Virus record (IMG/VR): IMGVR_UViG_3300006753_004675
Span: 5,887-69,886 of that record
Direction: 5' to 3' (one strand)
Origin: a virus
Length of the DNA stretch: 64,000 nucleotides
Part shown: one piece after another, positions 4,369 to 61,783 of the stretch
How positions within the stretch are numbered: position 1 is the stretch's first letter
How the letters are laid out: each line of letters opens with the position of its first letter
Notes under the pieces: generated by a model
The model's input: only the letters and a program-made list of their open reading frames with translations
Databases searched by the model: none
Told to the model about the DNA's origin: nothing
Made by a program: the position numbers and the translations under genes

Positions 4369-4377
4369 GAAACTTTA

Positions 4378-5607
4378 ATGATGAATGATAAGAAAAACAC
4401 AATAAGAACGTGGAGTCAGTCAGATGTCGATAAGCTTAGGGGTAGAGTAAGAATAGAGTACTCTTTGGCAAAGGAGGGATCAGAAAAATTATGGGATCTT
4501 TTGCTTTCGAAAGAAAGTGTTTCTGCATTAGGAGCGCTGACTGGTAACCAGGCTGTTCAACAAGTTCGAGCTGGGCTTAAGGCTATTTATCTTTCTGGGT
4601 GGCAGGTCGCAGCAGATGCTAATCTGTCGGGTCATATGTATCCAGATCAGAGTTTATATCCTGCCAATAGTGTTCCAAGCGTGGTAAAGAGAATCAATCA
4701 GGCTCTTCAAAGGGCTGATCAGATTGAAAGCGTTGAAGGAGTTAGAAGCTGTGATTGGATGGTTCCAATTATAGCTGACGCAGAGGCTGGATTTGGAGGT
4801 CACTTAAACGCATATGAGTTAATGAAAGCAATGATAGAGTCAGGTGCCGCCGGAGTTCATTTTGAGGATCAGCTAAGCTCTGAAAAAAAGTGCGGCCATC
4901 TTGGAGGAAAAGTTCTTGTTCCGACATCTCAATTTATTAAAACTTTAAAAGCTGCCAGGCTCGCATCTGATGTCATGGGTGTTTCTACAGTGCTTATAGC
5001 TAGAACTGATGCAAATAGTGCTAAGCTTATGACATCTGATATAGACCCATATGATCATCAATTTATGTCAGGAGAAAGAACACGAGAGGGTTTCTATAGA
5101 ATTACTGGCGGAATAGATCAGGCTATATCTAGAGGTCTAGCATACGCTCCGTATGCTGATCTTCTTTGGTGTGAAACTTCCACACCAGATCTTGATGAAG
5201 CTAGAAAGTTTGCTAATGCTATTCATGAAAAATATCCTGGAAAACTACTTGCATATAATTGCTCTCCATCGTTTAACTGGAGAAAGAATCTTGACGAAGT
5301 TACTATATCAATATTTCAAGATGAGTTGAATAAGATGGGATATAAGTTTCAATTTGTAACACTCGCAGGGTTTCATTCCCTTAATCACTCTATGTTTGAA
5401 TTATCTAGAAAATATAAGGATTATGCGATGAGTGCATATGTAGAGCTCCAAGATAATGAGATGATGTCTGAGCACTTTGGGTATACAGCAACAAAGCACC
5501 AGAGAGAGGTTGGAACAGGATACTTTGATGCAGTTAGAGAGATAATTAGTGAAGGTGAATCTTCTACTTTAGCTTTAAACGAATCCACAGAAGAAGATCA
5601 GTTTTAA
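4378..5607 (+). CDS. aceA: Isocitrate lyase
   Basis: [32 protein letters not shown] catalytic motif, [21 protein letters not shown]. Confidence 0.97.
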
Positions 5608-6728: not shown

Positions 6729-7154
6729 ATGAAATGGTCGCCGCCGAGATCACCGTTTAATTTAATTCAAGAGCATCTATGGCAAGATCCATGGAAAATA
6801 TTTGTCGCGTGTATATTTTGCAATCTTACTAGAAGGGTAGATGCAGAACCGTATATGTGGAAATTTTTTGAGAAATATCCAGATCCAGTATCTGCATCAA
6901 GTGCAGATCCTAGTGAAATAAGAGATATGATAAAGCCGTTAGGGCTATCAGAAAGACGATCTAAGTCTCTTATTAGAATGTCTGATGATTACATCAATAA
7001 GGATTGGAGATATAGTCCAGATGTTCTCTATGGGATCGGAAAGTATGGATCTGATGCCTATAGGATATTCTGCTTGGGAGAGTGGAGATCTGTTATGCCG
7101 TCTGATCATGCACTTAATGATTATCACGAATTTCTTAAGCGGGTGTTTTATTAG
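6729..7154 (+). CDS. MBD4-like HhH-GPD mismatch DNA glycosylase (catalytic domain only)
   Basis: KWSPPRSPFNLIQE..DPWK, KPLGL, GIGKYGSDAYRIFC, P.DHALN.Y; colinear with the eukaryotic MBD4 glycosylase domain. Confidence 0.85.
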   Translation: MKWSPPRSPFNLIQEHLWQDPWKIFVACIFCNLTRRVDAEPYMWKFFEKYPDPVSASSADPSEIRDMIKPLGLSERRSKSLIRMSDDYINKDWRYSPDVLYGIGKYGSDAYRIFCLGEWRSVMPSDHALNDYHEFLKRVFY

Positions 7155-9049: not shown

Positions 9050-9514
9050 ATGGGAATCGCTGTCAAGGGAGAATCATTTATTAAAAACAGTGCTGTCGAA
9101 GAAGATAATAAATCTTTTTCTGGCTCCAGTGAAGAAGATAATGAAGACAGTCTAAGACATATGTTTGAGTTAAGAGAGTCATTTATGAATTCGCTTATTG
9201 AAAAATATCCGAATGATAACCTGGAATGGCCGGTTGATCTATCAAATAAAAATAGTCAGCAATATTGCAGAGATATAGCTCTAAGAGGCGTTGAAGAGAT
9301 GTTTGAGGCTCTTCAGCATCTTAAAAACTGGAAACCCCATAGATCAACAGAAAATATTGAATTTGACAAAGATGAGTTTTTAGAAGAAATTGTTGATGCA
9401 TTTAATTACTTTTTCTCTCTTATAATTCTTGCAGGATTTAATTCAACTGATCTTTATGAATCATATCTTAAAAAGGATGAAGTTATTCATGAAAGACTTA
9501 GGAACGGATATTAA
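9050..9514 (+). CDS. All-alpha NTP pyrophosphatase (dimeric dUTPase / T4 gp56 dCTPase-like)
   Basis: EEMFE..HLKNWKPH, EEIVDAFNY, Y.KK..VIH.RL..GY. Confidence 0.75.
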   Translation: MGIAVKGESFIKNSAVEEDNKSFSGSSEEDNEDSLRHMFELRESFMNSLIEKYPNDNLEWPVDLSNKNSQQYCRDIALRGVEEMFEALQHLKNWKPHRSTENIEFDKDEFLEEIVDAFNYFFSLIILAGFNSTDLYESYLKKDEVIHERLRNGY

Positions 9515-9755
9515 GCCAGGCTCCTTTTTTCATAAGGAATCTGATAAAGCTTTTACATTTGATTCTATTAAAGCGCTAATCGAGATCATAGAGTCTTTGA
9601 ACTTTGACAGTCATAGCGGAATAATAAGATTATCCATTTCATCTGGGTATATGGTTTTCAGTAACTGCGATACAGCGTCATTAATAGAGTCAATTAAAAA
9701 TTATAATAAAAATCAGCAAAGTGATGTTACAATTATTCATGATAAGAATAAATAA
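9489..9755 (+). CDS. Hypothetical protein
   Basis: Fills the gap between coupled genes; start uncertain. Confidence 0.45.
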   Translation: MKDLGTDIKPGSFFHKESDKAFTFDSIKALIEIIESLNFDSHSGIIRLSISSGYMVFSNCDTASLIESIKNYNKNQQSDVTIIHDKNK

Positions 9756-10690
9756 TGAATTTTGATTTAAAGAGATTATTTGAAAGGCAACAAGATTTTA
9801 ACAAAATATTTTATGATAGTAGTCTTTCTATAGAAGAAAAAGAAGAGATAACAAAATCTTTATCATTGGCCCTGCATTCTGAGGTTAGCGATCTTATTTC
9901 TGGAATTAACTTTAAAGATCATAGAAATATTAAAAAGGAAGTAGACTTAAATAAAATAACATATGAATCAGTTGACGCCTTCAGGTATCTTCTTGCAATT
10001 CTGAATTTATGGGATATTTCAAGTGAGACGTTTATGAGTGCATTCGAGGATAAGGATTTGTTTTTACACGCCAGACATAAATCAACACAAAATAAGTGGA
10101 ATGGTCAGCCAGTTATTATTTTTGACCTAGATGATGTAATTTCAGAGTTTAGATCAGGCTTTATTGACTGGCTAGATGAAAAATATGGTATCAAGGCTGA
10201 TAAAAATTCATCTGAATATTATACAACGACTGAAGTTAAAAATGCAGGATATAATCCTGAAGAAGTATTTTTAAGATTTATTGATCATAGAGGGCTTAGA
10301 GACATTGAAGCTAATAAAGAAATGATAAAGCTAATTAACTCTCTTTCAAATGATGGATTTTGGATTCAAATTTTAACTGCTAGACCTGATGAAAATCCCA
10401 TTTGTAGGTATGATACATATTTCTGGCTTGAAAAGTTGCAAGTGAATTATCACAGACTTGACTTTAGCGCCGAAAAGTATAGGTGGTTAACTCAGTCTGA
10501 ATATTTTGATTCTGGATCAGTTGTATGTGCTGTTGATGATTCTCCAAAGCATGCAGGAGAATATGCCAAGCATGGAATTCCTGTTTTACTTCCGAAGCTT
10601 TCTTATAATTCAGAAGTGTGGAATATAGAAAATATTCATGTATATGAAGATCCTAAAAATTTAAATGATATGATAAAAACACTTGTATAG
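9755..10690 (+). CDS. Fusion: all-alpha NTP-PPase-like domain + HAD 5'(3')-deoxynucleotidase (NT5C-like)
   Basis: N-term EVSDL..FKDH..ESVDAF; C-term FDLDDV, LTARP, T..WL, VDDSP. Confidence 0.7.
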   Translation: MNFDLKRLFERQQDFNKIFYDSSLSIEEKEEITKSLSLALHSEVSDLISGINFKDHRNIKKEVDLNKITYESVDAFRYLLAILNLWDISSETFMSAFEDKDLFLHARHKSTQNKWNGQPVIIFDLDDVISEFRSGFIDWLDEKYGIKADKNSSEYYTTTEVKNAGYNPEEVFLRFIDHRGLRDIEANKEMIKLINSLSNDGFWIQILTARPDENPICRYDTYFWLEKLQVNYHRLDFSAEKYRWLTQSEYFDSGSVVCAVDDSPKHAGEYAKHGIPVLLPKLSYNSEVWNIENIHVYEDPKNLNDMIKTLV

Positions 10691-10720
10691 CTTGGTATAA
10701 TATAGAAATAAGGAGAAAAA

Positions 10721-11695
10721 ATGCCAGTTAATTATGATCTCGAACCAATTATTCTTCCCATGGATTTGAAGTTTGGTCAAGATACAAACACAGAATTTTA
10801 CAATAATCTCAAGGCCTTAAAGGTCGAGTTAGTTGATCATCCTACAAGAGAGCAATCTCTTAATGTCGCCTGGCAATATGTGAAGGCAACATGGGCTGAT
10901 CATCATGATGAAACAAACCCAGTCGGAACATCTAGAAAAGATCTATCCAAAAATCTGGAAGATGTTTTATCATTCAGGGCACTGCCAACTCCCATGGAAT
11001 GTCTTAGCTTTACGTTTAAATTAAGTGGATTATCATTTCAAGAAGTGACACATATCATTAGGCATAGAGCAGGATCATTTGCTGCACAATGCACGGGAGA
11101 CAGAGACCTACGGGACGATCCTGCTGTGATTCCAGAGTCTGTTGAAAATTCTCCAGAATTTTTAGAAAGGTGGAAAAATCTAGTATTGGAATCAAAACAA
11201 CTATATGCAGACATGACGGATAGCAAAAGTGTATCAATGATGGATGCAAGAATGATCCTTCCTAAGTGTATGACATCATTTTATTTAATGAGAATGAATC
11301 TTAAAGATTTGATTGGATTTATAAGGCAACGGCAGGATGTTCAGATTCAACCTGCCGCTGATAATCTTCTTGCAGGCTATATGGCTAGAGAACTTATCAG
11401 GGTTCTTCCAGAGGCATCTGTAGCTATTGACTTTAACAAGCCGGATATGCATTATATAAAAACCTTTAGGGTTCAAGAAGGAGGAAAGTGGACTAGCAAG
11501 GGAACAAATCTATATTGGCCCGAGCCTAAAAATGATAAGTTTGATTATCATCCTGAGGATACAATTTATCAGTCTACTCGAGAAAAGATCAATGGAACAA
11601 ACAATCCCGGCGGCTATACAGTATTTGAAACACTATGGGCAAAAATACTTGATGACATTCACAGAATGAGATTTAAATATCAAAATGAAAGATAG
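10721..11695 (+). CDS. thyX: Flavin-dependent thymidylate synthase-like protein (variant ThyX)
   Basis: HIIRHR.GSF, DARMILP, FIRQR; the RHRx7S serine is replaced by Cys. Confidence 0.75.
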   Translation: MPVNYDLEPIILPMDLKFGQDTNTEFYNNLKALKVELVDHPTREQSLNVAWQYVKATWADHHDETNPVGTSRKDLSKNLEDVLSFRALPTPMECLSFTFKLSGLSFQEVTHIIRHRAGSFAAQCTGDRDLRDDPAVIPESVENSPEFLERWKNLVLESKQLYADMTDSKSVSMMDARMILPKCMTSFYLMRMNLKDLIGFIRQRQDVQIQPAADNLLAGYMARELIRVLPEASVAIDFNKPDMHYIKTFRVQEGGKWTSKGTNLYWPEPKNDKFDYHPEDTIYQSTREKINGTNNPGGYTVFETLWAKILDDIHRMRFKYQNER

Positions 11696-11730
11696 ATGTT
11701 TTTCATAGAATGTGAATAATATGTATCTAA

Positions 11731-12531
11731 GTGAAGCTATTAAAAGAATACATTAGAGAAATGCTACTCGAAGGTCGAAAGACACAGTCTAAAAGACTGC
11801 ATTCATTTACCAACATGATAACATCGGATATTATGAGAGTTATTCATGGAAAGGAAACAAGACTTCCTTCGTCTGCCCTAACTAGAGATGATTTTTCTTA
11901 TGATGTAGGTGGCGACGAGACATCTGAATTTGTTGAAATTGTTGCCGGAAATATTCCACTAAGCATGGATTGGAAGTCACAAGGTTTTTCACATGACATA
12001 TCTGATGATATAGTTGATACAACTGTCTATATAGTGGTTCAAGTTAATAGGGGCACAGAAGATTTTAATGTGAGCGGGGCTGACAAGGATGTGACGGGAA
12101 TCCATGACATAGGATTATATGTCTCAGTAGATATTCCTTCAGATTTGAATTTAAGTGAGTACTCTAAGCTAAGAGATGAGGTATCAAATACTGTGAGACA
12201 TGAGCTAGAGCATATAACGCAGGGTGAGGGATCCGATCAAATGTTTATAGCTCACGGAAGAGATGATGATTATTATGATTTTATAAACTCTCCCAGCTCT
12301 GTGGAGGGAGATTTTGCCAAATATCTTTTAGAACCAAAAGAGATTCCATCTCATGTAAGAGGGTACATTCAGAATTCTAAAGATTTGAAAGATTTTAATA
12401 TGAGAATTTATATATTGTTAAATAGATATCAGGATAAAGGTCTTATAAGCGACTATGAAAAGAATATTATCTTTGATACGTGGAAAGATTGGATGAGAAA
12501 AAAAGTTCATCAAAAGAAATTTAATGCATAA
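11731..12531 (+). CDS. Putative zincin metallopeptidase with N-terminal leader
   Basis: RHELEHITQ (HExxH) with downstream EPKE; MKLLKEYIREMLLE leader. Confidence 0.55.
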   Translation: MKLLKEYIREMLLEGRKTQSKRLHSFTNMITSDIMRVIHGKETRLPSSALTRDDFSYDVGGDETSEFVEIVAGNIPLSMDWKSQGFSHDISDDIVDTTVYIVVQVNRGTEDFNVSGADKDVTGIHDIGLYVSVDIPSDLNLSEYSKLRDEVSNTVRHELEHITQGEGSDQMFIAHGRDDDYYDFINSPSSVEGDFAKYLLEPKEIPSHVRGYIQNSKDLKDFNMRIYILLNRYQDKGLISDYEKNIIFDTWKDWMRKKVHQKKFNA

Positions 12532-12592
12532 CATTTTTAAAAATAGAAATACTATTGCATATAATTGATTTATTAACCCGCTCGGAGAAAAA

Positions 12593-13033
12593 ATGAAGGC
12601 ATATATTGCTAGTTCTTGGTTCACACCTGACGCATTTGAAGAAGTTGAAATGATTAAAAAGACTTTAACAAAGAATGAATTTGGATATTTTTCACCAAAA
12701 GATTTTTTTGTCTGTCCCCCAACAGCTGATCTTCAAACACAGAAGGATACGTTCGAAGGAAATGTCAAGCACATCCTTGGAAATGATTTTGTAATCTGTA
12801 ACACACGTGACAAAGATATGGGAAGCATCTTTGAAGCAGGAGTCGCATACAATTCAAATACGCCGCTAGTGTATTTTTGTGCAGGCCTGCCTGAAGGAGC
12901 TACGTTTAATCTCATGCTGGCACAGTCAGGTGTCAAGGTTTGCACATCTTTTGATGATCTCGATGATTATCTATCACGGTGCAAGGAGTCTGGTGAGCTT
13001 CTATTTGAACCGTATTATGGAAATATTGAATGA
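12593..13033 (+). CDS. Nucleoside 2-deoxyribosyltransferase / nucleotide N-glycosidase family
   Basis: YIASSWF, FSPK, D.GSIFEAG.A, NLML. Confidence 0.8.
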   Translation: MKAYIASSWFTPDAFEEVEMIKKTLTKNEFGYFSPKDFFVCPPTADLQTQKDTFEGNVKHILGNDFVICNTRDKDMGSIFEAGVAYNSNTPLVYFCAGLPEGATFNLMLAQSGVKVCTSFDDLDDYLSRCKESGELLFEPYYGNIE

Positions 13034-14094
13034 CAAAAAGTGGTCTAGTAAAGCTAAAGCTTGAGTATGTCTGGATAGATGGATTCAAGCCATGGGGTCT
13101 TAGGTCTAAGGTAAGGGTTCATACTTTACCTGAGTCTGATTTTTTAAAATTAAGAAATGATCTTGATCATAAGGTGTTTCCTGAGTGGGGGTTTGATGGA
13201 TCATCCACCGGCCAGGCAAGCGGATCTGATTCTGACTGCTTATTGTTACCAGTGAGAGTGGTTCCAGACGCTGTAAGAGGCGATAGCCTGGCATTCGTTG
13301 TACTGTGCGAGGTTTTGAATGGAGATGGTAGTCCCCATATTACGAATAATAGAAGTGATTTAGAGAAGATAGACGGGAAAACTCACGAATCAGAATCGTG
13401 GTTTGGAATTGAACAGGAATACACGGTTATAAAGAGTGAAAGACCTCTTGGGTTTCCAGAGGGCGGATATCCAAAGCCTCAAGGAATTTACTACTGTAGT
13501 GCTGGCGGGGATAGATCATTTGGTCGTGACATATCTGATGATCATATGAATGCGTGTCTATGGGCAGGACTGGATATAACGGGCACAAATGCTGAAGTAA
13601 TGCCTGGTCAGTGGGAATACCAAATAGGAGGTCCAGGTGTGGGTCCTGTTGATGTATCAGATCAGCTATGGATCTCTAGATGGTTCCTGCTAAAGATATC
13701 AGAAGCTTATGGACTAACAGTTACATTTGATCCAAAGCCAATGATGGGCGACTGGAATGGAGCCGGATGTCATACTAACTTTAGCACAGGGAAGATGAGA
13801 GCTCCCGGCGGAATAAAATATATAGAGCAGGCATGTAAAAAAATTGGAAACAATATACAGAAACATTTAGATGCATACGGCGATGGATTAGAGCTAAGGC
13901 TTACAGGATTGCATGAAACATGCTCGTATAAAGAGTTTAAATGGGGTGTTTCAGATAGAACAGCTAGTATTAGAATACCAAGACATGTGAACAATGATGG
14001 ATGTGGGTACCTTGAAGATCGTCGTCCCAATTCTAATTGTGACCCATACAATGTCACGCGTATTATTCTTGAAACAGTTTGTCTAGAAGATTAA
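13030..14094 (+). CDS. glnII: Glutamine synthetase type II
   Basis: EYVWIDG, WGFDGSST, WFGIEQEY, NAEVMPGQWEYQ, DWNGAGCHTNFS, RLTGLHET, YLEDRRP. Confidence 0.93.
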   Translation: MTKSGLVKLKLEYVWIDGFKPWGLRSKVRVHTLPESDFLKLRNDLDHKVFPEWGFDGSSTGQASGSDSDCLLLPVRVVPDAVRGDSLAFVVLCEVLNGDGSPHITNNRSDLEKIDGKTHESESWFGIEQEYTVIKSERPLGFPEGGYPKPQGIYYCSAGGDRSFGRDISDDHMNACLWAGLDITGTNAEVMPGQWEYQIGGPGVGPVDVSDQLWISRWFLLKISEAYGLTVTFDPKPMMGDWNGAGCHTNFSTGKMRAPGGIKYIEQACKKIGNNIQKHLDAYGDGLELRLTGLHETCSYKEFKWGVSDRTASIRIPRHVNNDGCGYLEDRRPNSNCDPYNVTRIILETVCLED

Positions 14095-14122
14095 TTTAAA
14101 ATTCTTAGTATTACTCATTTCG

Positions 14123-14150
14123 TGTAAATATCACAAAATCGTGGTACACT
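14123..14150 (+). promoter_or_regulatory. TGTAAA-N16-TACACT putative promoter of dnaE
   Basis: Repeated intergenic motif with extended TG. Confidence 0.6.
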
Positions 14151-14165
14151 AGGAATAGGTAATTA

Positions 14166-17100
14166 ATGTCAGATTTTAATAAATTTTCTATTCCCAAACA
14201 GTTTGTTGGATTGCATGCACATGATGGTTCAAGTGTATACGATGGGCTAGGTTATCCTAACCAGCATATCGATTTTATCTTGGAGAACGGTATGAATGCA
14301 TTTGCGTTGACAAATCATGGTAACATGAATTCAGCTGCTCATGCTCACACATATTCTAAAAAATTAAAAAATAAGGGTGTAGACTATCGACACATCTATG
14401 GATGTGAATTCTACTTCGTAGATTCATTAAGCGAGTGGAGAGATGACTATGAGGAACATAGAGAAAATGTCAGGCTTAAAAAGATAAATAAGAAGAGTTT
14501 AAAAACAGATGATTCTGGCGAAGAAACAGAAGGGCTTATTATTGAGAATGAGTCTGAGTCAAAGTCATCTAAAGGAAAAAGCTATCCCGAGTGGAAGAGA
14601 AGGTATCATCTGGTTGTCGTAGCTAAAAACTTTACTGGCCTTCAAAACTTATTCAAGCTCATAAAAAAATCATTTAAATATGGATTTTACAGATTTCCTA
14701 GAATAGATTTTAAGATGCTCAAGGAGCATAGTGAAGGGCTTGTTGTATCCACAGCATGTGTTGGCGGAAGGATGTCGGGATTAATTTTTCAACACTTTCC
14801 AGATAAGTCATTTGAAGATTTAGCTCCAGAGCTCGTTGATGATCCCGTTATTTTAAACAGCGTCATGAGAAAGCTTGAAAATTCCACAGACAGATTTATT
14901 GATGCTGTAGGAAAAGAAAACTTTTTTCTTGAAATTCAATTTAATAGATTTCCCGCGCAGGATCTCACAAATAGATGTCTTCTTCGACTATCTGAAAAAA
15001 CAGGCATTCCGCTCATAGCCACAGCTGATTCACATTATTGTCATCCAGACTTATGGGAGGCTAGAGAGCTATATAGACTTCTTGGAAGAATGGGTCAAAG
15101 AGGTGATGACATGCCAGAGCTTCCTAGTAAAGAAGATTTAAAATGTGAACTCTATCCTAAAAATTCATTCCAAATGTGGGATGCCTTCAAGGATCAGTGG
15201 GAAAAATATGACTTCTATAAGGACAGTGAAGAGATTGTTAAGGATGCGATTGAAAGAACTCATGACATAGCGTGGCAGATGTGTGAAGAGGTCTGGTTTG
15301 ATTCTTCAGCAAAACTTCCAGATTTCAGCACACCAGACGTTAGCGCAATTAATCAGCTTATAAAGCTTGTCAAGAAGAGAATGATTGAGCACGGCTTGCA
15401 TGAAAATCAAGAGTATATTAGTAGAGTCACAGAAGAGCTCTCTGTGATTAAAGCGCTAGGATTCGAGAACTACTTTTTGACTCTAACAAAGGTGTTTGAA
15501 AAGGCGGGAAATAGAACACTATTGGGCCCTGGAAGAGGATCAGGAAGCGGTAGCCTTGTGAATTATATTTTGGGTATCACGCACATAGATCCTCTTGAAT
15601 ATGGCCTACTATTTGAGAGATTTTTAGGTCTTCATAAGGTTGCATGGCCAGATATAGATTCCGATGTAGCGGATAGAGATGTTCTTATTGATGTTTCTAG
15701 GGAGCTTTTTGGAGAGGATTCTGTAATTCCAGTTTCAAACTTTAATACATTGAAACTAAAGTCTCTTATAAAGGATGTCTCTAAGTTCTATGGTATTCCC
15801 TTTGATGAGGTGAACGCAATGACAAATCCTCTTGAAAGAGAGGTCCAGCCTCTCGCAATGGGAGACCATGAGGAAAAGTCGACATATATTTTGACAAATG
15901 AAGATTGTGAAAAATATAGTGAATCGTACAGGGAGTTTATGAAAAAATATCCCAAAGTACAGGAGCATGTTAAAAATCTATTCATGGAGATTAGAAGTAT
16001 TGGAAGACATGCAGGTGGCGTGCTGGTGTGCCCAAATCTTGAAGACAACATGCCTGTCATCAAGGTGAGAGGTGATCTACAAACACCGTGGTCAGAGGGC
16101 ATGAACTTTAGACATCTTGAAGAGAATGGATTTCTTAAGTTTGATTTTCTCGGACTTGCTACCCTGAAGATGGTTGAGGACACAATAAGACTAATTCTTA
16201 GAAGCCAGGGAGTTGAAAATCCTAATTTTAATCAAATCAATAAATTTTTTGATGAGAATTTAAGCAGCAGATATCACAAGCTAGATGATCAAAAGGTCTG
16301 GGAGTATATCTATCATGCAGGTAGATTTGTTCAAATTTTTCAATTTACCAACACCGGCGCTAGAAAGTTTTGCATAGCTGCCAAGCCTAGATGTATTGAA
16401 GATCTGTCTGCTATCACAGCGATTTATAGACCAGGCCCACTCACAGCTAATGTTCACAGGAAGTATGTAAAGGTGGGCCAAAATCTTAATCTTATTAAAT
16501 ATGATCATCCAGTACTAGAGGAGATTCTTTCAGAAAGTAGAGGATTTGTTATATATCAGGAACAGTTTATGCTTATAGCACAGAAGCTATCCGGATTCGA
16601 CAAGGGTGCTTCTGACAAGATGAGAAAAACACTTGTTAAGAAGTCTCTTGACCAGAATGATAAGAAGGTAGGGGAGCGCATTAAACTTAGAAAGGACTTT
16701 ATTGATGGAGCAGTAACCGTCAGCAACATGGATAGAGAAAAAGCAACATCTCTTTATGAGACAATTGAGGCTTTTTCTGGGTATGGTTTCAATAAGAGTC
16801 ACGCAGTAGCGTATGCTATAGATTCTTATTATTCTGCATGGATGCATACACATTATGAAAAGGAGTGGCTAGCTACCTGTCTTCAGACGTGGAACGGCTC
16901 TCCAAAATTTGGAAAAATTATTTCTGAAATTAAATCAATTGGGTATAAAATTCTTCAGGCAGATATTAATACATCTTCTGATGTGTGGGTATTTTCTGAA
17001 GAAAGGGGCGGGTTTGTTCCGCCGTTAACAGCTATCAAGGGTGTGGGATCTGCTGCTGTGCAAGAAATTTTAGATCGGAGGCCATTCAAAGACATCGATC

Positions 17101-17756
17101 AGCTGCTGTTTACAGAGGACGGAAAGTGGAAGCCATCTAAGATGAATAAAACTTGTTTTGATTCTCTATGTAAGGTAGAGGCTTTTGGATCTTTAGAAGA
17201 GATGACGAATGGTACGATTAAAAATCACAGACAGCTTCACGAAATTATAGTTGGAAACTATGACCTTCTCAAGAAGGGCCGCCATGGAATCACAAAGACA
17301 GCTGCAAAAAAACTAATGAAAGAAACAGGAGCAGTTCCAGACTTCATACCTGAAAAGATAAGGGAGTCTTATGATTTACCTGACTGGCAAAGATCGTCTA
17401 AGATATCATTTGGGGTTGACTTGATGTCAGGAGTAGATTCAGAGATAATATTCCCGTCATCAATAATGAAAAAGATAAATGCTGCTCAAGTCAAACCTGT
17501 AAGTTCTCTTAAGGGAAATGAAAAAGGAATAGCTTGGTTTTGCATAGAGGAGATTATAGAAAAAAAGACCAAGAACGGAAAGACATTTTATAGACTGAGG
17601 GTTTGTGACGATAATTCTAGTAGTAAGTGGGTTCGTGTCTGGAGTAAGTTTAATCAAATTCCAGAGCTGTATACAATATGGCTGGCAGAGATATCCTCTA
17701 ATGAAACATGGGGATACTCAACTTCTACATATAAGATGAAAAAGATAGATGTTTAA
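14166..17756 (+). CDS. dnaE: DNA polymerase III alpha subunit (family C)
   Basis: PHP domain (LHAH, LTNHG, DSHY), GRGSGSGS, PDIDSD, GRHAGG, LKFDFLGL, YQEQ, GFNKSHA; no intein seen. Confidence 0.95.
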   Translation: MSDFNKFSIPKQFVGLHAHDGSSVYDGLGYPNQHIDFILENGMNAFALTNHGNMNSAAHAHTYSKKLKNKGVDYRHIYGCEFYFVDSLSEWRDDYEEHRENVRLKKINKKSLKTDDSGEETEGLIIENESESKSSKGKSYPEWKRRYHLVVVAKNFTGLQNLFKLIKKSFKYGFYRFPRIDFKMLKEHSEGLVVSTACVGGRMSGLIFQHFPDKSFEDLAPELVDDPVILNSVMRKLENSTDRFIDAVGKENFFLEIQFNRFPAQDLTNRCLLRLSEKTGIPLIATADSHYCHPDLWEARELYRLLGRMGQRGDDMPELPSKEDLKCELYPKNSFQMWDAFKDQWEKYDFYKDSEEIVKDAIERTHDIAWQMCEEVWFDSSAKLPDFSTPDVSAINQLIKLVKKRMIEHGLHENQEYISRVTEELSVIKALGFENYFLTLTKVFEKAGNRTLLGPGRGSGSGSLVNYILGITHIDPLEYGLLFERFLGLHKVAWPDIDSDVADRDVLIDVSRELFGEDSVIPVSNFNTLKLKSLIKDVSKFYGIPFDEVNAMTNPLEREVQPLAMGDHEEKSTYILTNEDCEKYSESYREFMKKYPKVQEHVKNLFMEIRSIGRHAGGVLVCPNLEDNMPVIKVRGDLQTPWSEGMNFRHLEENGFLKFDFLGLATLKMVEDTIRLILRSQGVENPNFNQINKFFDENLSSRYHKLDDQKVWEYIYHAGRFVQIFQFTNTGARKFCIAAKPRCIEDLSAITAIYRPGPLTANVHRKYVKVGQNLNLIKYDHPVLEEILSESRGFVIYQEQFMLIAQKLSGFDKGASDKMRKTLVKKSLDQNDKKVGERIKLRKDFIDGAVTVSNMDREKATSLYETIEAFSGYGFNKSHAVAYAIDSYYSAWMHTHYEKEWLATCLQTWNGSPKFGKIISEIKSIGYKILQADINTSSDVWVFSEERGGFVPPLTAIKGVGSAAVQEILDRRPFKDIDQLLFTEDGKWKPSKMNKTCFDSLCKVEAFGSLEEMTNGTIKNHRQLHEIIVGNYDLLKKGRHGITKTAAKKLMKETGAVPDFIPEKIRESYDLPDWQRSSKISFGVDLMSGVDSEIIFPSSIMKKINAAQVKPVSSLKGNEKGIAWFCIEEIIEKKTKNGKTFYRLRVCDDNSSSKWVRVWSKFNQIPELYTIWLAEISSNETWGYSTSTYKMKKIDV

Positions 17757-18662
17757 ATGCTAACATTTCCAACGCAAAATTTATTTATCGAAGGATCAGA
17801 TTGTGCAGGAAAGACAACTCTGATTAGGAAGATTCATGATATCACGGGCTATAGACGGCATATTCATGACAGATCACAGATCTCAAGAAAAATATTTGCA
17901 GATCTTTATCAAAGAAATCTAGATAACCTAGAGTCTGATTTTCATCTTGAGATATCAAATCTCAATAATAGGTTTGTATTTTTATATCCAGATTTTGAAA
18001 CTGTTAAGGATAGATTTTTAAAAAGGGGTGATGAAATTCACAAAGATATTTCATCAATAAAGAGAGTCTATGATGAGTTTTTAGATGCATATATTTTTTT
18101 ATCACAGTTTCCAAATATTTCCGGATATGGTGGTGATGATACAGGTGAAATAGCGGGCAAGCTGTCTGCATATCTAGATATCGTTGAAAGGTGCATGCTA
18201 AAAGAAGTCTCTGATCAAGTATCAGAATTTGTAAAAAATATCTCTAATGAGTCTTATCCGCTTTCATTCACACTTTATGATGATGGAAAGTTTGAAGAGT
18301 CTACAGAGTCTTCTATGTCCTATGGGCCAGAAAAAGAATATTATTTCATGATTCATGATAGTCTCATCCATAAAATTGAGATGGAGCTCTCTGGAGAAAA
18401 TGAGTATAATAGAGTGGAGGGTTTTGAATCCAGAAGGTTCGTATTCGCAGATAAATCATGTATATCTTTTATACAGGTAGCAGTAAGAAATAATATAATG
18501 GACTTTAATGTTGTTTTAAGATCAACAGATGTTGCAACGACATTTCCACATGATTTAAAATTTTTATACTATTTGGCATCAAAATGCTGGAAAGTAATTG
18601 GAATAGGATGTATTAAGTGTAGATTAAGATTTAATTTAAACTCTGCACACATTATTGGTTAA
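17757..18662 (+). CDS. Fusion: dNMP kinase (P-loop) + thymidylate-synthase/dCMP-hydroxymethylase-like domain
   Basis: EGSDCAGKTT and HDRS; C-term SRR..SCISFIQ..RSTDV..FPHDL. Confidence 0.65.
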   Translation: MLTFPTQNLFIEGSDCAGKTTLIRKIHDITGYRRHIHDRSQISRKIFADLYQRNLDNLESDFHLEISNLNNRFVFLYPDFETVKDRFLKRGDEIHKDISSIKRVYDEFLDAYIFLSQFPNISGYGGDDTGEIAGKLSAYLDIVERCMLKEVSDQVSEFVKNISNESYPLSFTLYDDGKFEESTESSMSYGPEKEYYFMIHDSLIHKIEMELSGENEYNRVEGFESRRFVFADKSCISFIQVAVRNNIMDFNVVLRSTDVATTFPHDLKFLYYLASKCWKVIGIGCIKCRLRFNLNSAHIIG

Positions 18663-18683: not shown

Positions 18684-19688
18684 ATGAATAAAAGAGCTTT
18701 GGTCACTGGGGGTTGTGGATTTATTGGTTCTAACCTATCAAAATCGCTTGTTAGTGATGGATGGGTAGTTGATATAGTAGATGACATGTCTAATGGTCAT
18801 CTTGAGCTATTAGAAGGTCTCAAGTTGAGAGTTATACCTGCAGATTTATTGCCCGCATTTTATGAAAAGACAAATAGGAGTGTTGATGATGTTCACGTCA
18901 TTCAGGGAGATTTTTCTCATCCCAATGTGCTAGGCAATATCATTAATCAAAGATACAATGTAATCTTTCATCAAGCTGCTGTTCCTCGTGTGTCTTATTC
19001 TGTTGAAAATCCATCTATTACGACTGATGTGAATATTTCATCGACAGTTCGATTATTTGAAGCATGTAGATCAAGTGTTGATAGGGTTGTTTGGGCATCT
19101 TCGTCTTCTGTCTATGGGGGCGCTGATACTCTCCCTACTCCTGAAACAAGCCCTAAGAATCCAAAGTCACCATACGCGTGGCAAAAAAGTTCAATTGAAG
19201 ATCTTGCAGAAATGTTTTATAATTTATATGATTTGGATATTGTATGTCTAAGATATTTTAATGTTTTTGGTCCAGGCCAGTACGGAGACTCACCATATTC
19301 AACAGCTGTTTCTTCATGGTGCCATAGAACAAAAGACATGAAGCCGCTTAGATCTGACGGCGACGGCACTCAATCGCGTGATTTATGCTACGTTGATAAC
19401 GTTGTTCATGCAAATATTCTTGCCGCTTCATCAGATCGTGTATTTGGTGGGAGATGTTATAATATTGCATGCGGAGATAGAACAACAAATAACGAAATAC
19501 TTGAATATTTTAAAAGTAAATTTTCACATACAGTTATACAGCATGCAGAGTGGAGATCAGGTGATGTGATGCATACAAAGGCTGATATTACAAGAGCGAG
19601 AGAGGAGCTCGGATATGAACCTCTAGTTAGATTCTGGGACGGTATTGAGAAAACAATTGAATGGTGGGAACTTGAAGATGGAGCATGA
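18684..19688 (+). CDS. NAD-dependent nucleotide-sugar epimerase/dehydratase (GalE/WbpP-like)
   Basis: TGGCGFIGS, HQAA, ASSSSVYG, YxxxK, RYFNVFGP. Confidence 0.9.
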   Translation: MNKRALVTGGCGFIGSNLSKSLVSDGWVVDIVDDMSNGHLELLEGLKLRVIPADLLPAFYEKTNRSVDDVHVIQGDFSHPNVLGNIINQRYNVIFHQAAVPRVSYSVENPSITTDVNISSTVRLFEACRSSVDRVVWASSSSVYGGADTLPTPETSPKNPKSPYAWQKSSIEDLAEMFYNLYDLDIVCLRYFNVFGPGQYGDSPYSTAVSSWCHRTKDMKPLRSDGDGTQSRDLCYVDNVVHANILAASSDRVFGGRCYNIACGDRTTNNEILEYFKSKFSHTVIQHAEWRSGDVMHTKADITRAREELGYEPLVRFWDGIEKTIEWWELEDGA

Positions 19689-20097
19689 CGATATCAAGAC
19701 AGCATGGGTTTCTAGGGGATGGAATATCAATAAAAAGCCGTGGGGCCGTGAGCATAGCTGGTCTTCATTTACGGCAGGGCATGGCAAGCTTCTTTTTATC
19801 GAACAGGGACACAGAACAAGTTTAAAATTCAATCCACAGAAATGTGAATCTTTAATAGTGATATCTGGAAGTATAGATGTAACTTATGGCGATGAGTTAT
19901 CGCTAGATTTTCCAGAATCTCACCCATTAAAGACAGAAAGATTAGGTGTAGGTGATAGTCTCAATGTTCAGTCTAGGTGCCCATATAGAATATCAGCTAT
20001 AGAAAACTCTAGAGTAGTAGAGATTGGAAATTTTTTAAATGATATTCCATTTAGAATAAAGGATGACTATGGAAGAGGTGATGAGAAGAGCTCCTGA
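19678..20097 (+). CDS. Cupin, mannose-6-phosphate isomerase type II-like
   Basis: KPWG.E, RTSL, K.E, R..DDYGR; metal-binding His residues degenerate. Confidence 0.7.
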   Translation: MEHDDIKTAWVSRGWNINKKPWGREHSWSSFTAGHGKLLFIEQGHRTSLKFNPQKCESLIVISGSIDVTYGDELSLDFPESHPLKTERLGVGDSLNVQSRCPYRISAIENSRVVEIGNFLNDIPFRIKDDYGRGDEKSS

Positions 20098-20641
20098 ATT
20101 TATAATTTTTACAGGCCCAATGTTTGGATCAAAAACTACGCGACTACTTGCTCACATAGATAGGTTCAAATATCAGAATAGAAGTGTTGCTGCGTTCAAG
20201 CCAAGACTAGATGATAGATATTCTAAGGGAGAAATTTGCACACATAGTGGTGGAACAATTGAGGCAAAAGTTGTTGGAACTGGATTAGATATATTGGAGA
20301 ATGTTCACAGTGACGTCGATGTTGTTGCTGTAGATGAGGCTTTTATGATAGACGGTGTTTCAGATGCTCTATTGAAGCTATTTAGAATGGGAAAGACGAT
20401 ACTTGTATCATCTTTGCAATTATCTGCTAGTGGTAATGTCTTTGAAGAAGTTCGTGACATGATGCCTTGGGCCACAAAGATTGAAGTTTGTCCTGCTGTC
20501 TGTACAGTTACTGGGCTAGATGCCTTTTATACACACAAAAAATTTGACGATCTAAATGAAATATCTATTGGTGGATCAGAACTTTATGAACCGAGATGCT
20601 GGTTTCATCATAGCTTTATGAATCAGTCCGAGGATAGCTAA
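20081..20641 (+). CDS. tdk: Thymidine kinase
   Basis: GPMFGSKTT, KP.LDDRY, VDEA, IGG.E.YEPRC. Confidence 0.9.
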   Translation: MRRAPEFIIFTGPMFGSKTTRLLAHIDRFKYQNRSVAAFKPRLDDRYSKGEICTHSGGTIEAKVVGTGLDILENVHSDVDVVAVDEAFMIDGVSDALLKLFRMGKTILVSSLQLSASGNVFEEVRDMMPWATKIEVCPAVCTVTGLDAFYTHKKFDDLNEISIGGSELYEPRCWFHHSFMNQSEDS

Positions 20642-21685
20642 ATGATCGAGCCAACCAGTGTCGACCTTATAATTTATCATGCAGATTGTTCTGATGGGTT
20701 TGGAGCTGCATATTCAGCATGGAAGTGTTTGGGGAAAAAAGCTGAATACTATCCTGCTAAGCACGGATCTCTACCACCAGACGTTACGGGTAAAACTGTT
20801 GCAATTCTTGATTTTTCATATGATAATACTACGATAAAGAATATGACTGAAGAGGCAGATGGCTTGATAGTGATTGATCATCATAAGTCCGCCATGATTG
20901 AGCTTCATGATATTTCTAATACTCATTTTGATATGACTAAGAGTGGCGCGATGCTAGCATGGGAATTTTTTCATCCTGGAAAAGAGCCCCCTAAGTTTAT
21001 TCGGTATATCGAAGATAGGGATCTTTGGAAGTGGGAACTTGAGTATTCAAAAGAGTTTTCTGCTGCGTTTGATATGGTCCCATTTGAATTTGAAGAATTT
21101 TTAAAGTTTGAGGATGACTCTGTTTTTGATGATGCAGTCAAGCGGGGATCATATATTTTGGCATACTCTAAGACTGTTGTTAAAAAAGTATGTGAAAAGG
21201 CGAAGCCTAGAAAGTTCAAGGGCATGGATGTTTTAGTTGTTAACTCATCTCACTGGATGTCTGAGATTGGAGCTAGACTTTCTCCAGATTGCGATTTTGC
21301 AGTGATATGGTATTATGATCATGAAAATAGAAATATAAAAGTCAGCCTGAGATCATTTCATGATTCAATTGATGTTTGTGAAATAGCTAAGGAATTTGGG
21401 GGAGGCGGCCATAAAAAGGCTGCAGGATTCTCTCTATCAGGAGAAACTATAGTTGATGATCTATTTGATGTAGTTGATGAGCCGATAGTTGATACAACAC
21501 CTGCAAGAGAGGCACTCAAGGAGATTCGACAGTCCCTAGAAGAAAAAGGAGATGTCGACAAGGAAGAGGCAGTCGATCAGATGGAGGCAATATTAGATGA
21601 GCTTGAGACAGACACAAAAGAAGATCAAGGACAAGAAGAGACAGATGACAGCGAGACTCAGCAAGCTGATGATAAAGAATCCTAA
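20642..21685 (+). CDS. DHH/DHHA1 phosphoesterase (NrnB-like) with acidic tail
   Basis: YHADCSDG, LDFS, IDHH, DRDLW, SLRS, GGGGHKKAAG. Confidence 0.85.
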   Translation: MIEPTSVDLIIYHADCSDGFGAAYSAWKCLGKKAEYYPAKHGSLPPDVTGKTVAILDFSYDNTTIKNMTEEADGLIVIDHHKSAMIELHDISNTHFDMTKSGAMLAWEFFHPGKEPPKFIRYIEDRDLWKWELEYSKEFSAAFDMVPFEFEEFLKFEDDSVFDDAVKRGSYILAYSKTVVKKVCEKAKPRKFKGMDVLVVNSSHWMSEIGARLSPDCDFAVIWYYDHENRNIKVSLRSFHDSIDVCEIAKEFGGGGHKKAAGFSLSGETIVDDLFDVVDEPIVDTTPAREALKEIRQSLEEKGDVDKEEAVDQMEAILDELETDTKEDQGQEETDDSETQQADDKES

Positions 21686-22465: not shown

Positions 22466-22867
22466 ATGAGGCCTGAATGGGATGAAATCTGGATGCAGTT
22501 TGCACAGTCAATATCGCGAAGATCTTATGATCCTCGTCACCAAGTTGGAGCTATTGTTGTAACAGGTGATAACACACAGATTTTGGCAGTAGGATATAAT
22601 GGAAATCATTCTGGAGGACCCAATGAGGTTGAATCATATGTTCCCGGTGAATCTGGAATGCTACATGCAGAAATTAATGCGCTGTTAAAGATGGACTATA
22701 ACAACCCTAAGAGAAAAATACTTTATGTTACTCTTTCACCATGTAGAATGTGTGCAAAAGCCATTATAAATTCTGGAATTAGTGAAGTTGTCTATAATGA
22801 AGAATATAGAGACAGGTCAGGAGTAGATCTACTTTTAGAGTCTGAAGTCATTGTTAGAAAATATTAG
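22466..22867 (+). CDS. dCMP deaminase
   Basis: RP.WD, VGA, GYNG, HAEINA, PCRMC. Confidence 0.9.
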   Translation: MRPEWDEIWMQFAQSISRRSYDPRHQVGAIVVTGDNTQILAVGYNGNHSGGPNEVESYVPGESGMLHAEINALLKMDYNNPKRKILYVTLSPCRMCAKAIINSGISEVVYNEEYRDRSGVDLLLESEVIVRKY

Positions 22868-22905: not shown

Positions 22906-23772
22906 ATGCCTGTATACCAGAGAGATGACAAAAAGATTCACTTCATTCATATTCCTAAGACAGCAGGAATGTCTGTAAGAAAGCTGCTTGAATCTAACGG
23001 GTGGAATAGAATTAATGAGCCTCGGGAGTTTTGTCCAGGAGTTTCAGGCCACGGTCACGCACCTTATAAGTTTTGGAGTCTGTGGGACGAGACTAAAAAC
23101 GTAGATTTTGAATTTTCTATTGTTAGAAATCCAATGTCTAGAGTAGTTTCACATTTACAAATGACAATTCTTCATCAATTTGATCGAGCTGCTCAAGAAT
23201 TGTTAAGCCTGGGTGCTTCAATTGACCCTGAGGATTTTATTAGTTTTTTTGAAAAAATAGGCATTCATGACATTCGAGACATGCCAGAGGATCAGGTTTT
23301 AGATAAGATTGGAAGCATTTTTACATCTAGCTGGAGTGACTCCAACCTTATTGCAAAGATAAATTACGGGTATGTGTGGCTAGAAGAAAACCTTAATAAA
23401 GAGTTAGAGATGTCATCGTGGCCAGAATTGATAGACTTATATTTGAAAGACTGGATTAGAGAGGTGGGTGACGACTTTGAAACAATCGGTGCAGTTCCAT
23501 GCCCGATGCACCTATATAATTCTGATAATACGAATGTCTATAGGCTTGAAACAGATATAAAGAAAATGATATCTGACCTAAAGGATCTAAAAATCATTCA
23601 TCTGCTTGATACTATGCCCAAAATAAATAAAAATTATCATAATTTTACTCCAGGTAGAGAGTCTTCATGGGAAGACTTTCCAAATATCAAAGAAAGATTT
23701 TTTAATTTATATGATAAGGATTTTGAACTATTTGAATATGATAGGTCTACCTCCTTTCCTGAGGTCAGATAA
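22906..23772 (+). CDS. Sulfotransferase family 2 protein
   Basis: FIHIPKTAG.S, FSIVRNP..R..S, YRLE, Y.KDFELF.Y. Confidence 0.75.
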   Translation: MPVYQRDDKKIHFIHIPKTAGMSVRKLLESNGWNRINEPREFCPGVSGHGHAPYKFWSLWDETKNVDFEFSIVRNPMSRVVSHLQMTILHQFDRAAQELLSLGASIDPEDFISFFEKIGIHDIRDMPEDQVLDKIGSIFTSSWSDSNLIAKINYGYVWLEENLNKELEMSSWPELIDLYLKDWIREVGDDFETIGAVPCPMHLYNSDNTNVYRLETDIKKMISDLKDLKIIHLLDTMPKINKNYHNFTPGRESSWEDFPNIKERFFNLYDKDFELFEYDRSTSFPEVR

Positions 23773-61731: not shown

Positions 61732-61759
61732 TGCAAATTATTGTTATGTGTGTTACAAT
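61732..61759 (+). promoter_or_regulatory. TGCAAA-N16-TACAAT putative promoter of tilS-guaB
   Basis: Variant of the repeated motif. Confidence 0.5.
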
Positions 61760-61783
61760 AAAGTATGTGGTGGCATTTCTTCT

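Follow-up and report, generated by a model that had tools for sequence, protein, structure and literature searches.

Can a single polypeptide equip an uncultured phage to modify cytosine before its DNA is replicated? The question is raised by a 64,000-nucleotide stretch of viral DNA (the window), bases 5887-69886 of the 69,886-bp IMG/VR virus record IMGVR_UViG_3300006753_004675, in which a gene for a protein of 301 aa follows the replicative polymerase gene dnaE. An earlier note, made from the letters of this DNA, had proposed a modified-cytosine nucleotide pathway flanking the polymerase and had read this gene as a deoxynucleoside monophosphate (dNMP) kinase fused to a thymidylate synthase (TS)-fold domain. 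All the genes that it listed were recovered at their positions in the open reading frame (ORF) list and by Pfam, and the fusion gene does lie directly after dnaE, whose stop codon (17754-17756) abuts the ATG at 17757. We consider the region a probable pre-replicative cytosine-modification pathway, and we favor, with moderate confidence, the view that the fusion is its bifunctional enzyme, modifying dCMP at C5 and phosphorylating the nucleotide.

We used structure prediction and Foldseek, a check proposed in that note, to examine the protein, and its C-terminal domain (residues 147-301) proved to have the TS fold. An AlphaFold2 (AF2) model of the fusion, built from an alignment of 47 sequences (A1: the window protein plus 46 of 120 listed matches, picked to span 40-87% identity), had a pLDDT of 95.2 and a pTM of 0.90. 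The top Foldseek matches of the C-terminal domain were the phage HY126 dCMP hydroxylase AfhB with dCMP (9iqu, E 1e-6) and a riboflavin-dependent dCMP monooxygenase with dCMP and FAD (9iqc, E 5e-6), followed by human TS and T4 dCMP hydroxymethylase, all at a probability of 1.00. Structural comparison with VIA gave Z scores of 11.9 for MilA (with hydroxymethyl-CMP; 5b6e, 143 residues aligned), 11.4 for 9iqc, 11.2 for AfhB (9iqu), and 10.7 for ThyA, with 139-148 residues aligned; these scores are tied within about 1. A PHROG thymidylate synthase profile (PHROG 160) matched residues 231-299 (E 3.3e-4), and when the family's C-terminal domain was compared by hhalign with ThyA-family sequences (E. 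coli ThyA, T4 gp42, RB69 gp48, HTVC119P gp16, and the XP12 TS homologue), the probability was 95.4% (E 1.9e-8) and, in a second run, 96.8% (E 2.7e-10 over 139 columns). When the alignment of the whole family was used as a profile against the PDB, only kinases were returned at E ≤ 10, and no TS. Together, the profile comparisons and the predicted model bear out the kinase-TS fusion described in the note, and on both the TS relationship of the C-terminal domain is far above chance.

We then compared active sites. When the window protein was aligned with E. coli ThyA, Arg226-Arg227, Cys235, Arg255-Ser256, and His298 fell on Arg126-Arg127, Cys146, Arg166-Ser167, and His207, and Tyr217 on Tyr94; Ile236, Asp258, Asp266, and Ser296 occupied the positions of His147, Asp169, Asn177, and Asp205. 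The motifs quoted in the earlier note are present in the 301-aa product (SCISFIQ at residues 234-240, RSTDV at 255-259, and FPHDL at 263-267), and its reading of Asp at the Asn position of the PFN motif held up in hhalign, which pairs Asp266 with Asn177. Conservation was counted over 78 distinct IMG/VR loci, drawn from the best 80 of 132 confirmed relatives and 26-60% identical to the window protein; the same loci underlie the synteny counts below. In ThyA numbering, the equivalent of Arg126 was kept in 78/78 loci, those of Cys146 and Arg127 in 77/78 each, those of Ser167 and His207 in 76/78 each, and that of Tyr94 in 63/78. The Arg166 equivalent (Arg255) was present in 47/47 sequences of A1 and in 59/60 of a second alignment (A2, 60 sequences), and the domain carries a conserved Ser-Arg-Arg motif. 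Position 177 was Asp in 77/78 loci (the other has a gap), in 47/47 sequences of A1, and in 60/60 of A2, while position 147 was Ile in 72 loci and Leu in 6, and never His.

These positions are informative in characterized enzymes. Asn177Asp leads to dCMP preference (Lee et al. 2026, PMC13326640), Asp177 is also named as the dCMP determinant in the MilA paper (PMC5175136), and in MetaGPA, TS positions 177 and 147 best split modified-cytosine from unmodified contigs, with Asp177 in the modified set (PMC8670742). At the positions of MilA Lys133' and Ala176, moreover, deoxy-specific enzymes carry Arg and Ser, respectively (PMC5175136). Since the family combines Asp177 with a non-His residue at 147 and with Arg226 and Ser256, it reads as a dCMP-type enzyme. 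An acidic residue at position 143 accompanies hydroxymethyl rather than methyl products (PMC13326640); Leu143 of ThyA sits in an alignment gap; three residues ahead of the Cys, the window protein has Asp232, and the residue there is D in 41, S in 10, Q in 8, G in 7, N in 6, E in 3, and H in 3 of the 78 loci.

The N-terminal domain was most similar to SPbeta YorR, both in structure (VIA Z 14.2 for 3kb2, against 13.0-13.2 for deoxyadenosine kinase and about 11.4 for thymidylate kinases) and in a PDB profile match (E 2.5e-7), and residues 10-73 matched the thymidylate kinase family phrog_761 (E 2.9e-10). In Pfam, the whole fusion gave only a subthreshold match to AAA_28 (17.8 bits), and the kinase domain of the window protein was itself below the cut-offs; a distant family member, P0258, passes Thymidylate_kin with 41.4 bits against a cut-off of 27. 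The hallmarks of the kinase family are all present, namely, the kinase fold, a Walker A motif (GxxGxGKT), an Asp-Arg motif, and an Arg-rich lid, whose motif aligns with guanylate kinases in the PDB profile search. Walker Lys19 and Asp38-Arg39 were kept in 78/78 loci, and Gly13, Gly18, Lys19, Asp38, Arg39, Arg86, Gly91, and Asp92 were invariant in A1. A rationale for joining such a kinase to a TS-like domain comes from work in E. coli, where a UV-visible peak of 5-hydroxydeoxycytidine (5hodC) in plasmid DNA needed the cognate dNMP kinase to be coexpressed with the TS homologue, the TS homologue alone giving an extracted-ion signal only (PMC13326640).

The fusion belongs to the core genes of a lineage of marine jumbo phages that is uncultured. 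At 50% identity, the family comprised 218 representatives in an exhaustive search, on contigs of up to 284 kb, and nearly all of the 160 relatives at E ≤ 0.001 were full-length proteins of 296-305 aa; no longer fused form appeared in a search over 528-2000 aa. Among 50,697 cultured phage records, no carrier of the full fusion was found, the two weak matches both being to the kinase half, and since the best matches of the window DnaE in the same records were below 30% identity, the lineage is known from metagenomes only. CheckV rates the record of the window as 26% complete, which implies a genome of about 270 kb, and five large related records of 202-284 kb, one rated 100% complete, served for all counts out of five given below. 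Literature searches found no published description of a kinase fused to a mini-TS domain; supplements lay outside these searches, and related TS homologues from metagenomes may appear in the supplements to Lee et al. and to MetaGPA.

We also analyzed the genes around the fusion (Table 1). In a nonoverlapping ORF map, which kept the fusion in 76 of the 78 loci (L069 and L070 were left out), DnaE was the ORF immediately before the fusion in 40/76 mapped loci, and an SDR was the ORF immediately after it in 40 of the 73 loci having a following ORF, making it the commonest gene there. In many relatives (L007, L008, L010-L012, L030-L034, and L061-L064), DnaE is split, or ORFs of 250-1000 aa are inserted between DnaE and the fusion; these may be inteins or homing elements.

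Table 1. Selected features of the window, with the number of the 78 loci in which each gene type lies within 10 kb of the fusion
Feature	Position	Strand	Evidence	Loci (of 78)
Stand-alone MBD4-type HhH-GPD DNA glycosylase	6729-7154	+	phmmer to MBD4 glycosylase-domain chains, E 3e-50	4
All-alpha NTP pyrophosphatase, gp56 homologue	9050-9514	+	Pfam dUTPase_2, 23.8 bits (cut-off 22.9), residues 98-154	26
NTP pyrophosphatase + HAD (NT5C) 5'-deoxynucleotidase fusion	9755-10690	+	Pfam dUTPase_2, 26.6 bits, residues 4-101; NT5C, 24.8 bits (equal to cut-off), residues 119-241	25
Divergent ThyX paralogue	10721-11695	+	Pfam Thy1/ThyX, 70.8 bits; AF2 pLDDT 81.7	39
Nucleoside 2-deoxyribosyltransferase-like protein, invariant Glu81	12593-13033	+	Pfam Nuc_deoxyrib_tr, 40.6 bits	47
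GlnII, type II glutamine synthetase	13030-14094		451 bits (cut-off 500)	0
DnaE-type replicative polymerase	14166-17756	+	Pfam PHP, pol3 alpha, finger, HHH_6	78
Kinase-TS fusion, 301 aa, directly abutting dnaE	17757-18662	+		
Fusion, N-terminal P-loop nucleotide kinase domain, residues 1-146	17757-18194	+	YorR/thymidylate-kinase-like	
Fusion, C-terminal minimal TS-fold domain, residues 147-301, 155 aa	18195-18662	+	Cytosine-type active site	
NDP-sugar epimerase/dehydratase (SDR)	18684-19688	+	Pfam Epimerase, 158 bits; NCBIfam TviC/GalE/RmlB-like, all below cut-offs	57
Cupin				24
Thymidine kinase (TK), TK1 type	20063-20641	+	Pfam, 112 bits	65
DHH/DHHA1 phosphoesterase	20642-21685		Weak NrnA-like match	50
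dCMP deaminase	22466-22867	+	Pfam, 81.2 bits	66
Superoxide dismutase (SOD)				56

Several of these neighbours fit the T4-like gene logic of the earlier note, that is, a TS homologue with a kinase, a gp56-type nucleoside triphosphate pyrophosphatase (NTP-PPase), and a dCMP deaminase. The deaminase is where the note had placed it. All-alpha NTP-PPase domains occur in two genes, as described there, and the first of the two proteins is homologous to T4 gp56 (hhalign 95%, E 4e-8; BLASTP E 7e-6), with a shared C-terminal NGY and a match to phrog_12184 (E 7e-18), the homology to gp56 covering its C-terminal 69 residues only (86-154 against gp56 96-171). The T4 GenBank record annotates gp56 as removing dCTP, dCDP, dUTP, and dUDP from the pool, and a gp56-like PPase was present in 5/5 large relatives. 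The second domain, fused to the HAD nucleotidase that the note had also recognized, received no support as a gp56 homologue (hhalign 5%). PDB searches with the single sequences of these two proteins and of the ThyX variant gave nothing useful. Each of the five large relatives has two ThyX genes, a canonical one (158-174 bits) and the variant (65-70 bits), and none has a PF00303 ThyA; since canonical ThyX lies elsewhere in all five, dTMP synthesis would be independent of the mini-TS domain.

The MBD4-type glycosylase provides a comparative link to modified cytosine. The bases that MBD4 excises are T, U, and 5-hydroxymethyl-U lying opposite G. The MBD4-like identity given in the note is secure over the full length of the protein, residues 1-136 aligning with residues 2-136 of chain 4ew4_A at about 54% identity (74/136 aligned positions). 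The protein belongs to a large stand-alone marine family (395 metagenomic clusters at E ≤ 1e-10), and a homologue was found in only 14 of the 50,697 cultured phage records, namely, 13 XP12-like phages of Xanthomonas, Stenotrophomonas, and Janthinobacterium and the cyanophage S-TIM54. In the DNA of XP12, all cytosine is replaced by 5-methylcytosine (5mC), and the phage induces a 5-methyl-dCMP kinase. An Asp177 TS homologue was present in 3/3 tested of those 14 (XP12, Donnerlittchen, and S-TIM54; records MT664984, ON529854, and OP053362). XP12 and Donnerlittchen share the gene order MBD4-like, PRA-PH-type NTP-PPase protein, ThyA-family gene, dCMP deaminase, and dihydrofolate reductase (DHFR), with the glycosylase two genes from the TS homologue. 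The sole ThyA-family gene of S-TIM54 (OP053362, 145421-146233) has Asp177, His147, and Cys143. The co-occurrence of an MBD4-type glycosylase and an Asp177 TS homologue in the XP12 group, S-TIM54, and the lineage of the window suggests a simple genomic marker of 5-substituted cytosine in phage DNA. The link of the glycosylase to cytosine modification that the note had drawn has comparative support; near the fusion itself, the gene is seldom found.

On the reading that we favor, the mini TS-fold domain would bind dCMP, the thiolate of Cys235 would attack C6, and Asp266 would read cytosine N3/N4, after which a one-carbon or oxygen substituent would be put on C5. We observe the fold, the domain order, the kept active-site residues, the synteny, and the homologies, and we infer the catalytic activity, the dCMP substrate, the sequence of the two steps, the added group, and the modification of virion DNA. 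For the window phage, three features favor a methyl or hydroxymethyl group: its Asp at position 169, its MBD4-type glycosylase, and the likeness to XP12. The structural neighbours and the family members with Asn169 would allow 5-hydroxylation. The fused thymidylate-kinase-like domain would then phosphorylate the modified dCMP, which host kinases would handle poorly, and the modified dCTP would pass to the adjacent DnaE polymerase and so into virion DNA. The gp56-like NTP-PPase would draw down dCTP and furnish dCMP; dTTP would be provided for by dCMP deaminase, ThyX, and TK; and the MBD4-type glycosylase would excise T or 5-hydroxymethyl-U opposite G, arising from deaminated 5-substituted cytosines.

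Several observations weigh against this scheme, and most concern the TS-like domain. It has no Pfam match over residues 147-301 even at E ≤ 1, the PF00303 model failing, and its 155 aa compare with 238-264 aa for ThyA, gp42, and RB69 gp48, the AfhB-type chains (9iqu and 9iqc) having 217-234 aa; the stretch matching ThyA residues 1-120 is only about 74 aa long. The fusion stops three residues past the His207 equivalent, so that the folate-closing C-terminal tail of ThyA is absent, and hhalign aligned nothing with confidence to the Trp80/Trp83 region or to Arg21 of ThyA. Since these three elements lack a counterpart, a cofactor site is not evident; as far as the alignments go, the active site retains its pyrimidine-activating half, and the cofactor half is not recognizable. 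The Tyr209 equivalent is not conserved, and position 169 is mixed at all identity levels (N 37, D 30, and E 10 of 78; the window protein has Asp258, within RSTDV) and does not behave as a cofactor determinant here. No DHFR was found in the five large relatives, which weakens the case for ThyA-type reductive methylation. In the kinase domain, the segment with which thymidylate kinases bind the NMP is largely missing, its Pfam alignment beginning at profile position 85, and since it is structurally tied with deoxynucleoside kinases in VIA, its step may precede the TS-like one. Among the neighbours, an MBD4-like gene was present in only 3/5 large relatives and within 10 kb of the fusion in only four loci, and no glycosyltransferase was found in the 20 Pfam-scanned clusters (of the 24 largest listed) of unlabelled neighbours, which were built from 756 unlabelled ORFs of the 78 loci.

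The main rival explanation takes the missing cofactor elements, together with the freedom of position 169 to vary, at face value: the TS-like domain would transfer nothing and would belong to an ordinary dNMP (dTMP/dCMP) kinase within the replication/dNTP-supply complex, as a module that binds pyrimidine nucleotides or that acts in regulation or assembly. The DNA would be canonical, and the flanking genes (for the NTP-PPases, the HAD nucleotidase, the deoxyribosyltransferase, TK, dCMP deaminase, and two ThyX) would shape the dNTP pool for an AT-rich genome. The GC content of the region (0.34-0.38) suits this idea, as do neighbours that are general salvage genes, for which a route from dNTP through dNMP and deoxynucleoside to base swap and TK would fit the match of the deoxyribosyltransferase-like protein to true transferases; a modification-specific partner such as a glycosyltransferase was, again, not found in the scanned neighbour clusters. 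We nevertheless regard it as unlikely. A mere binding module is not expected to keep the nucleophilic Cys and the pyrimidine-activating set in 76-78 of 78 loci when the proteins are only 26-60% identical, Asp177 with a non-His residue at 147 is the signature of modified-cytosine contigs (PMC8670742), and a gp56 homologue is found together with an MBD4-type glycosylase.

A second alternative concerns the added group. Like RB69 gp48 or HY126 AfhB, the TS-like domain could use flavin to hydroxylate dCMP, as a 5-hydroxy-dCMP synthase, giving DNA with 5-hydroxycytosine, possibly glycosylated later. The Asp169Asn change that marks flavin-dependent 5-hydroxy-dCMP synthases (PMC13326640) is seen as Asn169 in 37/78 family members; the window protein, however, has Asp there, as do 30/78, and 10 have Glu. 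Similarly, 9iqu and 9iqc are the two best Foldseek matches and, at 217-234 aa, the shortest solved TS-fold enzymes, with a short C terminus like that of the fusion, but their VIA Z scores (11.2 and 11.4) are tied with those of MilA and ThyA. Genes for NDP-sugar enzymes lie nearby (the SDR, the cupin, and, in 25 loci, an RmlD-like reductase), and yet the scan of common neighbours turned up no glycosyltransferase. An MBD4-type glycosylase, moreover, suits deaminated 5mC or 5-hydroxymethylcytosine better than deaminated 5-hydroxycytosine, and this counts against the hydroxylase, which we judge decidedly unlikely for the window phage.

The two steps might also run in reverse, the N-terminal domain being a deoxycytidine (deoxynucleoside) kinase that turns salvaged deoxycytidine into dCMP for the TS-like domain, with another kinase phosphorylating the product. 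After YorR, deoxyadenosine kinases do outrank thymidylate kinases in VIA, two distant members have weak Pfam dNK matches, and the HAD 5'-nucleotidase and the deoxyribosyltransferase of the module would yield deoxynucleosides. This order seems very doubtful to us, given that P0258 passes Thymidylate_kin, that the lid motif aligns with guanylate kinases, and that characterized systems need a dedicated kinase for modified dCMP (PMC13326640). Finally, a plain thymidylate synthase-thymidylate kinase fusion acting on dUMP and dTMP, as the PHROG names, the TK and dCMP deaminase neighbours with their place in dTTP supply, and the automatic name of a viral cluster in the ESM Atlas would have it, is scarcely credible with Asp rather than Asn at 177 in 77/78 loci, canonical ThyX in 5/5 large relatives, and no folate-site elements seen.

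A cytosine-modifying fusion, the reading that we favor, can be set beside known systems. One of the closest is T4 (gp42, the gp1 dNMP kinase, gp56, and the Cd dCMP deaminase), with which the window shares a TS fold bearing Cys146, Arg126/127/166, Ser167, His207, and Asp177, a dedicated kinase, a gp56 homologue, a dCMP deaminase, and the placement of the modification gene beside the replicative polymerase (gene 42 in T4). In contrast to T4, the window has kinase and TS fold in one polypeptide, its TS domain is of 155 aa rather than the 246 aa of gp42 and is without the Trp80 region and the C-terminal part, its polymerase is DnaE rather than family B, and no glucosyltransferase was found in the scanned neighbours of the lineage. 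In the XP12 system for 5mC, an MBD4-like glycosylase and an all-alpha NTP-PPase protein are likewise encoded in the same module as an Asp177 TS homologue and a dCMP deaminase; its TS homologue, in contrast, is full-length (289 aa, PF00303 138 bits) and adjoins a DHFR gene. The MilA paper names a "dCMP methylase from phage Xp12" (PMC5175136). When the XP12 module was compared with the window by phmmer, only the glycosylase and the deaminase were linked, and the PRA-PH protein was rejected as an orthologue of either NTP-PPase (hhalign ≤ 1%). That protein is not detectably homologous to either; the resemblance to XP12 is in kind rather than by orthology.

The 5-hydroxy-dCMP synthases (RB69 gp48, DLP3 gp80, and HY126 AfhB; 9iqu and 9iqc) resemble the fusion in their rank in Foldseek, a short TS fold, Asp177, and Ser at 205 (SAH motif), and differ from it at the diagnostic position 169 (Asn in the synthases, Asp in the window protein, and variable across its family) and in a domain 60-80 aa longer; genes for arabinose or UDP-sugar transferases were not found. 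The CMP hydroxymethylases MilA and BcmA of nucleoside antibiotic pathways, which occur with MilB-type N-glycosidases, share with the window the highest VIA Z for the C-terminal domain, Asp177, and a deoxyribosyltransferase-fold protein in the same region. MilA has, however, Lys and Ala where the window family has the deoxy-type Arg226 and Ser256 (PMC5175136), and, unlike MilB and DNPH1, the deoxyribosyltransferase-like protein of the window resembles true transferases.

An unfused counterpart of the two domains occurs in the pelagiphage HTVC119P (MH598806, 2995-4279), one of the two cultured phage records matched by the kinase half of the fusion, where gp15, a stand-alone kinase-domain homologue of 157 aa, lies upstream of gp16 and overlaps its start. 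Annotated as a thymidylate synthase, gp16 is a ThyA-family protein with Asp177, Asp143 (gp42-like), and Asp169, so that the pair presents the two domain types of the fusion in the same order; gp16, unlike the C-terminal domain of the 301-aa family, is full-length and recognized by PF00303. HTVC119P may itself make modified cytosine. A viral cluster in the ESM Atlas (about 437 aa, 62 members, "thymidylate kinase/thymidylate synthase domain-containing") has the same domains in the same order and would differ from the 301-aa family, like gp16, in a full-length TS domain recognized by PF00303.

What is most likely new here, against the T4- and XP12-type dCMP modification already known, is thus a kinase fused to a TS domain far smaller than any studied. 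If active, the fusion would be the smallest known TS-superfamily catalyst and a natural covalent link of base modification to phosphorylation, and it would help to define the minimal TS core for C5 chemistry. If our reading is right, a widespread ocean jumbo-phage group would be marked as having noncanonical cytosine, which bears on restriction and CRISPR evasion, on sequencing bias in viromes, and on host-prediction methods. A bolder version, which we offer as tentative, is that this lineage replaces its DNA cytosine by means of an undescribed core-only TS-fold catalyst of 155 aa fused to the kinase of its product, the donor being bound unlike that of folate-type ThyA/gp42 or flavin-type AfhB, possibly with the kinase domain in the site. 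Switching at position 169 could then correspond to different C5 groups in sister phages, and the Cys-bearing ThyX might be a second flavin-dependent pyrimidine modifier.

That ThyX paralogue fairly earns the label "variant" given to it in the earlier note, scoring 43.9 bits against a cut-off of 87.9 for the NCBIfam thyX equivalog. Its fold is that of ThyX (Foldseek matches to ThyX/PolB, E 7e-10 to 1e-9), and in a PDB profile alignment with T. maritima ThyX, it keeps the RHR motif and two later Arg residues, among its retained residues being the Arg aligned with Arg174, which reads uracil O4. Glu86, Ser88, Arg90, and Tyr91 of the T. maritima enzyme, of which Ser88-x-Arg90-Tyr91 is the substrate loop, are replaced by Ala, Cys, Gly, and Asp, the loop becoming Cys-Thr-Gly-Asp, and the Cys at the Ser88 position was invariant in 32/32 sequences. 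The paralogue has an extension of about 90 aa in the window and in L089-L091.

The protein described in the note as a deoxyribosyltransferase/N-glycosidase was supported in the first part of that name and not in the second: its family profile matched the N-deoxyribosyltransferase 6evs in the PDB (E 1.4e-14), and the dNMP N-glycosidase DNPH1 only at E 0.69. Nothing cytosine-specific was found to support the roles in a cytosine pathway that had been assigned to this protein, the HAD nucleotidase, and the variant ThyX. Between the deoxyribosyltransferase gene and dnaE lies GlnII, which was considered as a base-modifying ligase and rejected, since it is a near-complete GlnII and occurs in none of the 78 related loci; in some relatives, its position is taken by DnaJ/DnaK or an RmlD-like gene. 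An ORF of 266 aa at 11731-12531, found in 2/78 related loci, has no family match and carries an HExxH-like motif, HELEH.

Directly after the fusion, the RmlB/GalE-like SDR is followed by the small cupin (window 18684-20097), and an RmlD-like reductase occurs in 25 related loci (e.g., L067, 5445-6431). The set looks like a 6-deoxyhexose-type NDP-sugar pathway by sequence, with no transferase identified. In the same block are the DHH/DHHA1 phosphoesterase and a Sulfotransfer_2 protein (22906-23772), and it is conceivable that a PAPS-using sulfotransferase is here paired with a pAp phosphatase. Identifiable clusters among the neighbours included DnaJ, DnaK, the RmlD-like reductase, an Fpg glycosylase, a trimeric dUTPase, a phosphoribosyltransferase, and a pterin-4a dehydratase. 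The fusion is followed, about 10 kb downstream, by a gene for pterin-4a-carbinolamine dehydratase (29075-29482 in the window), which is conserved there in 25 related loci.

The window as a whole has a GC content of 0.32-0.46 and nearly all of its genes on the + strand. By Pfam, its replication and nucleotide-supply block comprises a gp32-like single-stranded DNA-binding protein, RecA, a 5'-3' exonuclease, DnaB, ribonucleotide reductase, and DnaE, around which stand host-like genes for ClpP, malate synthase, isocitrate lyase, GlnII, SOD, GroEL, DnaK, sigma-70, QueF, a TilS-like PP-loop protein, and a GMP reductase/IMPDH homologue. The genes for malate synthase (aceB) and isocitrate lyase (aceA) adjoin at window positions 2818-5607; a phage aceBA operon is noted once, in a 179-kb Tara viral genome (PMC5332604). 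A QueF-II preQ1 synthase (46282-46731; 88.2 bits, above the cut-off), the TilS-like PP-loop ATPase (61748-62389), and the GMP reductase/IMPDH homologue (62389-63402) may hint at 7-deazaguanine or other purine chemistry.

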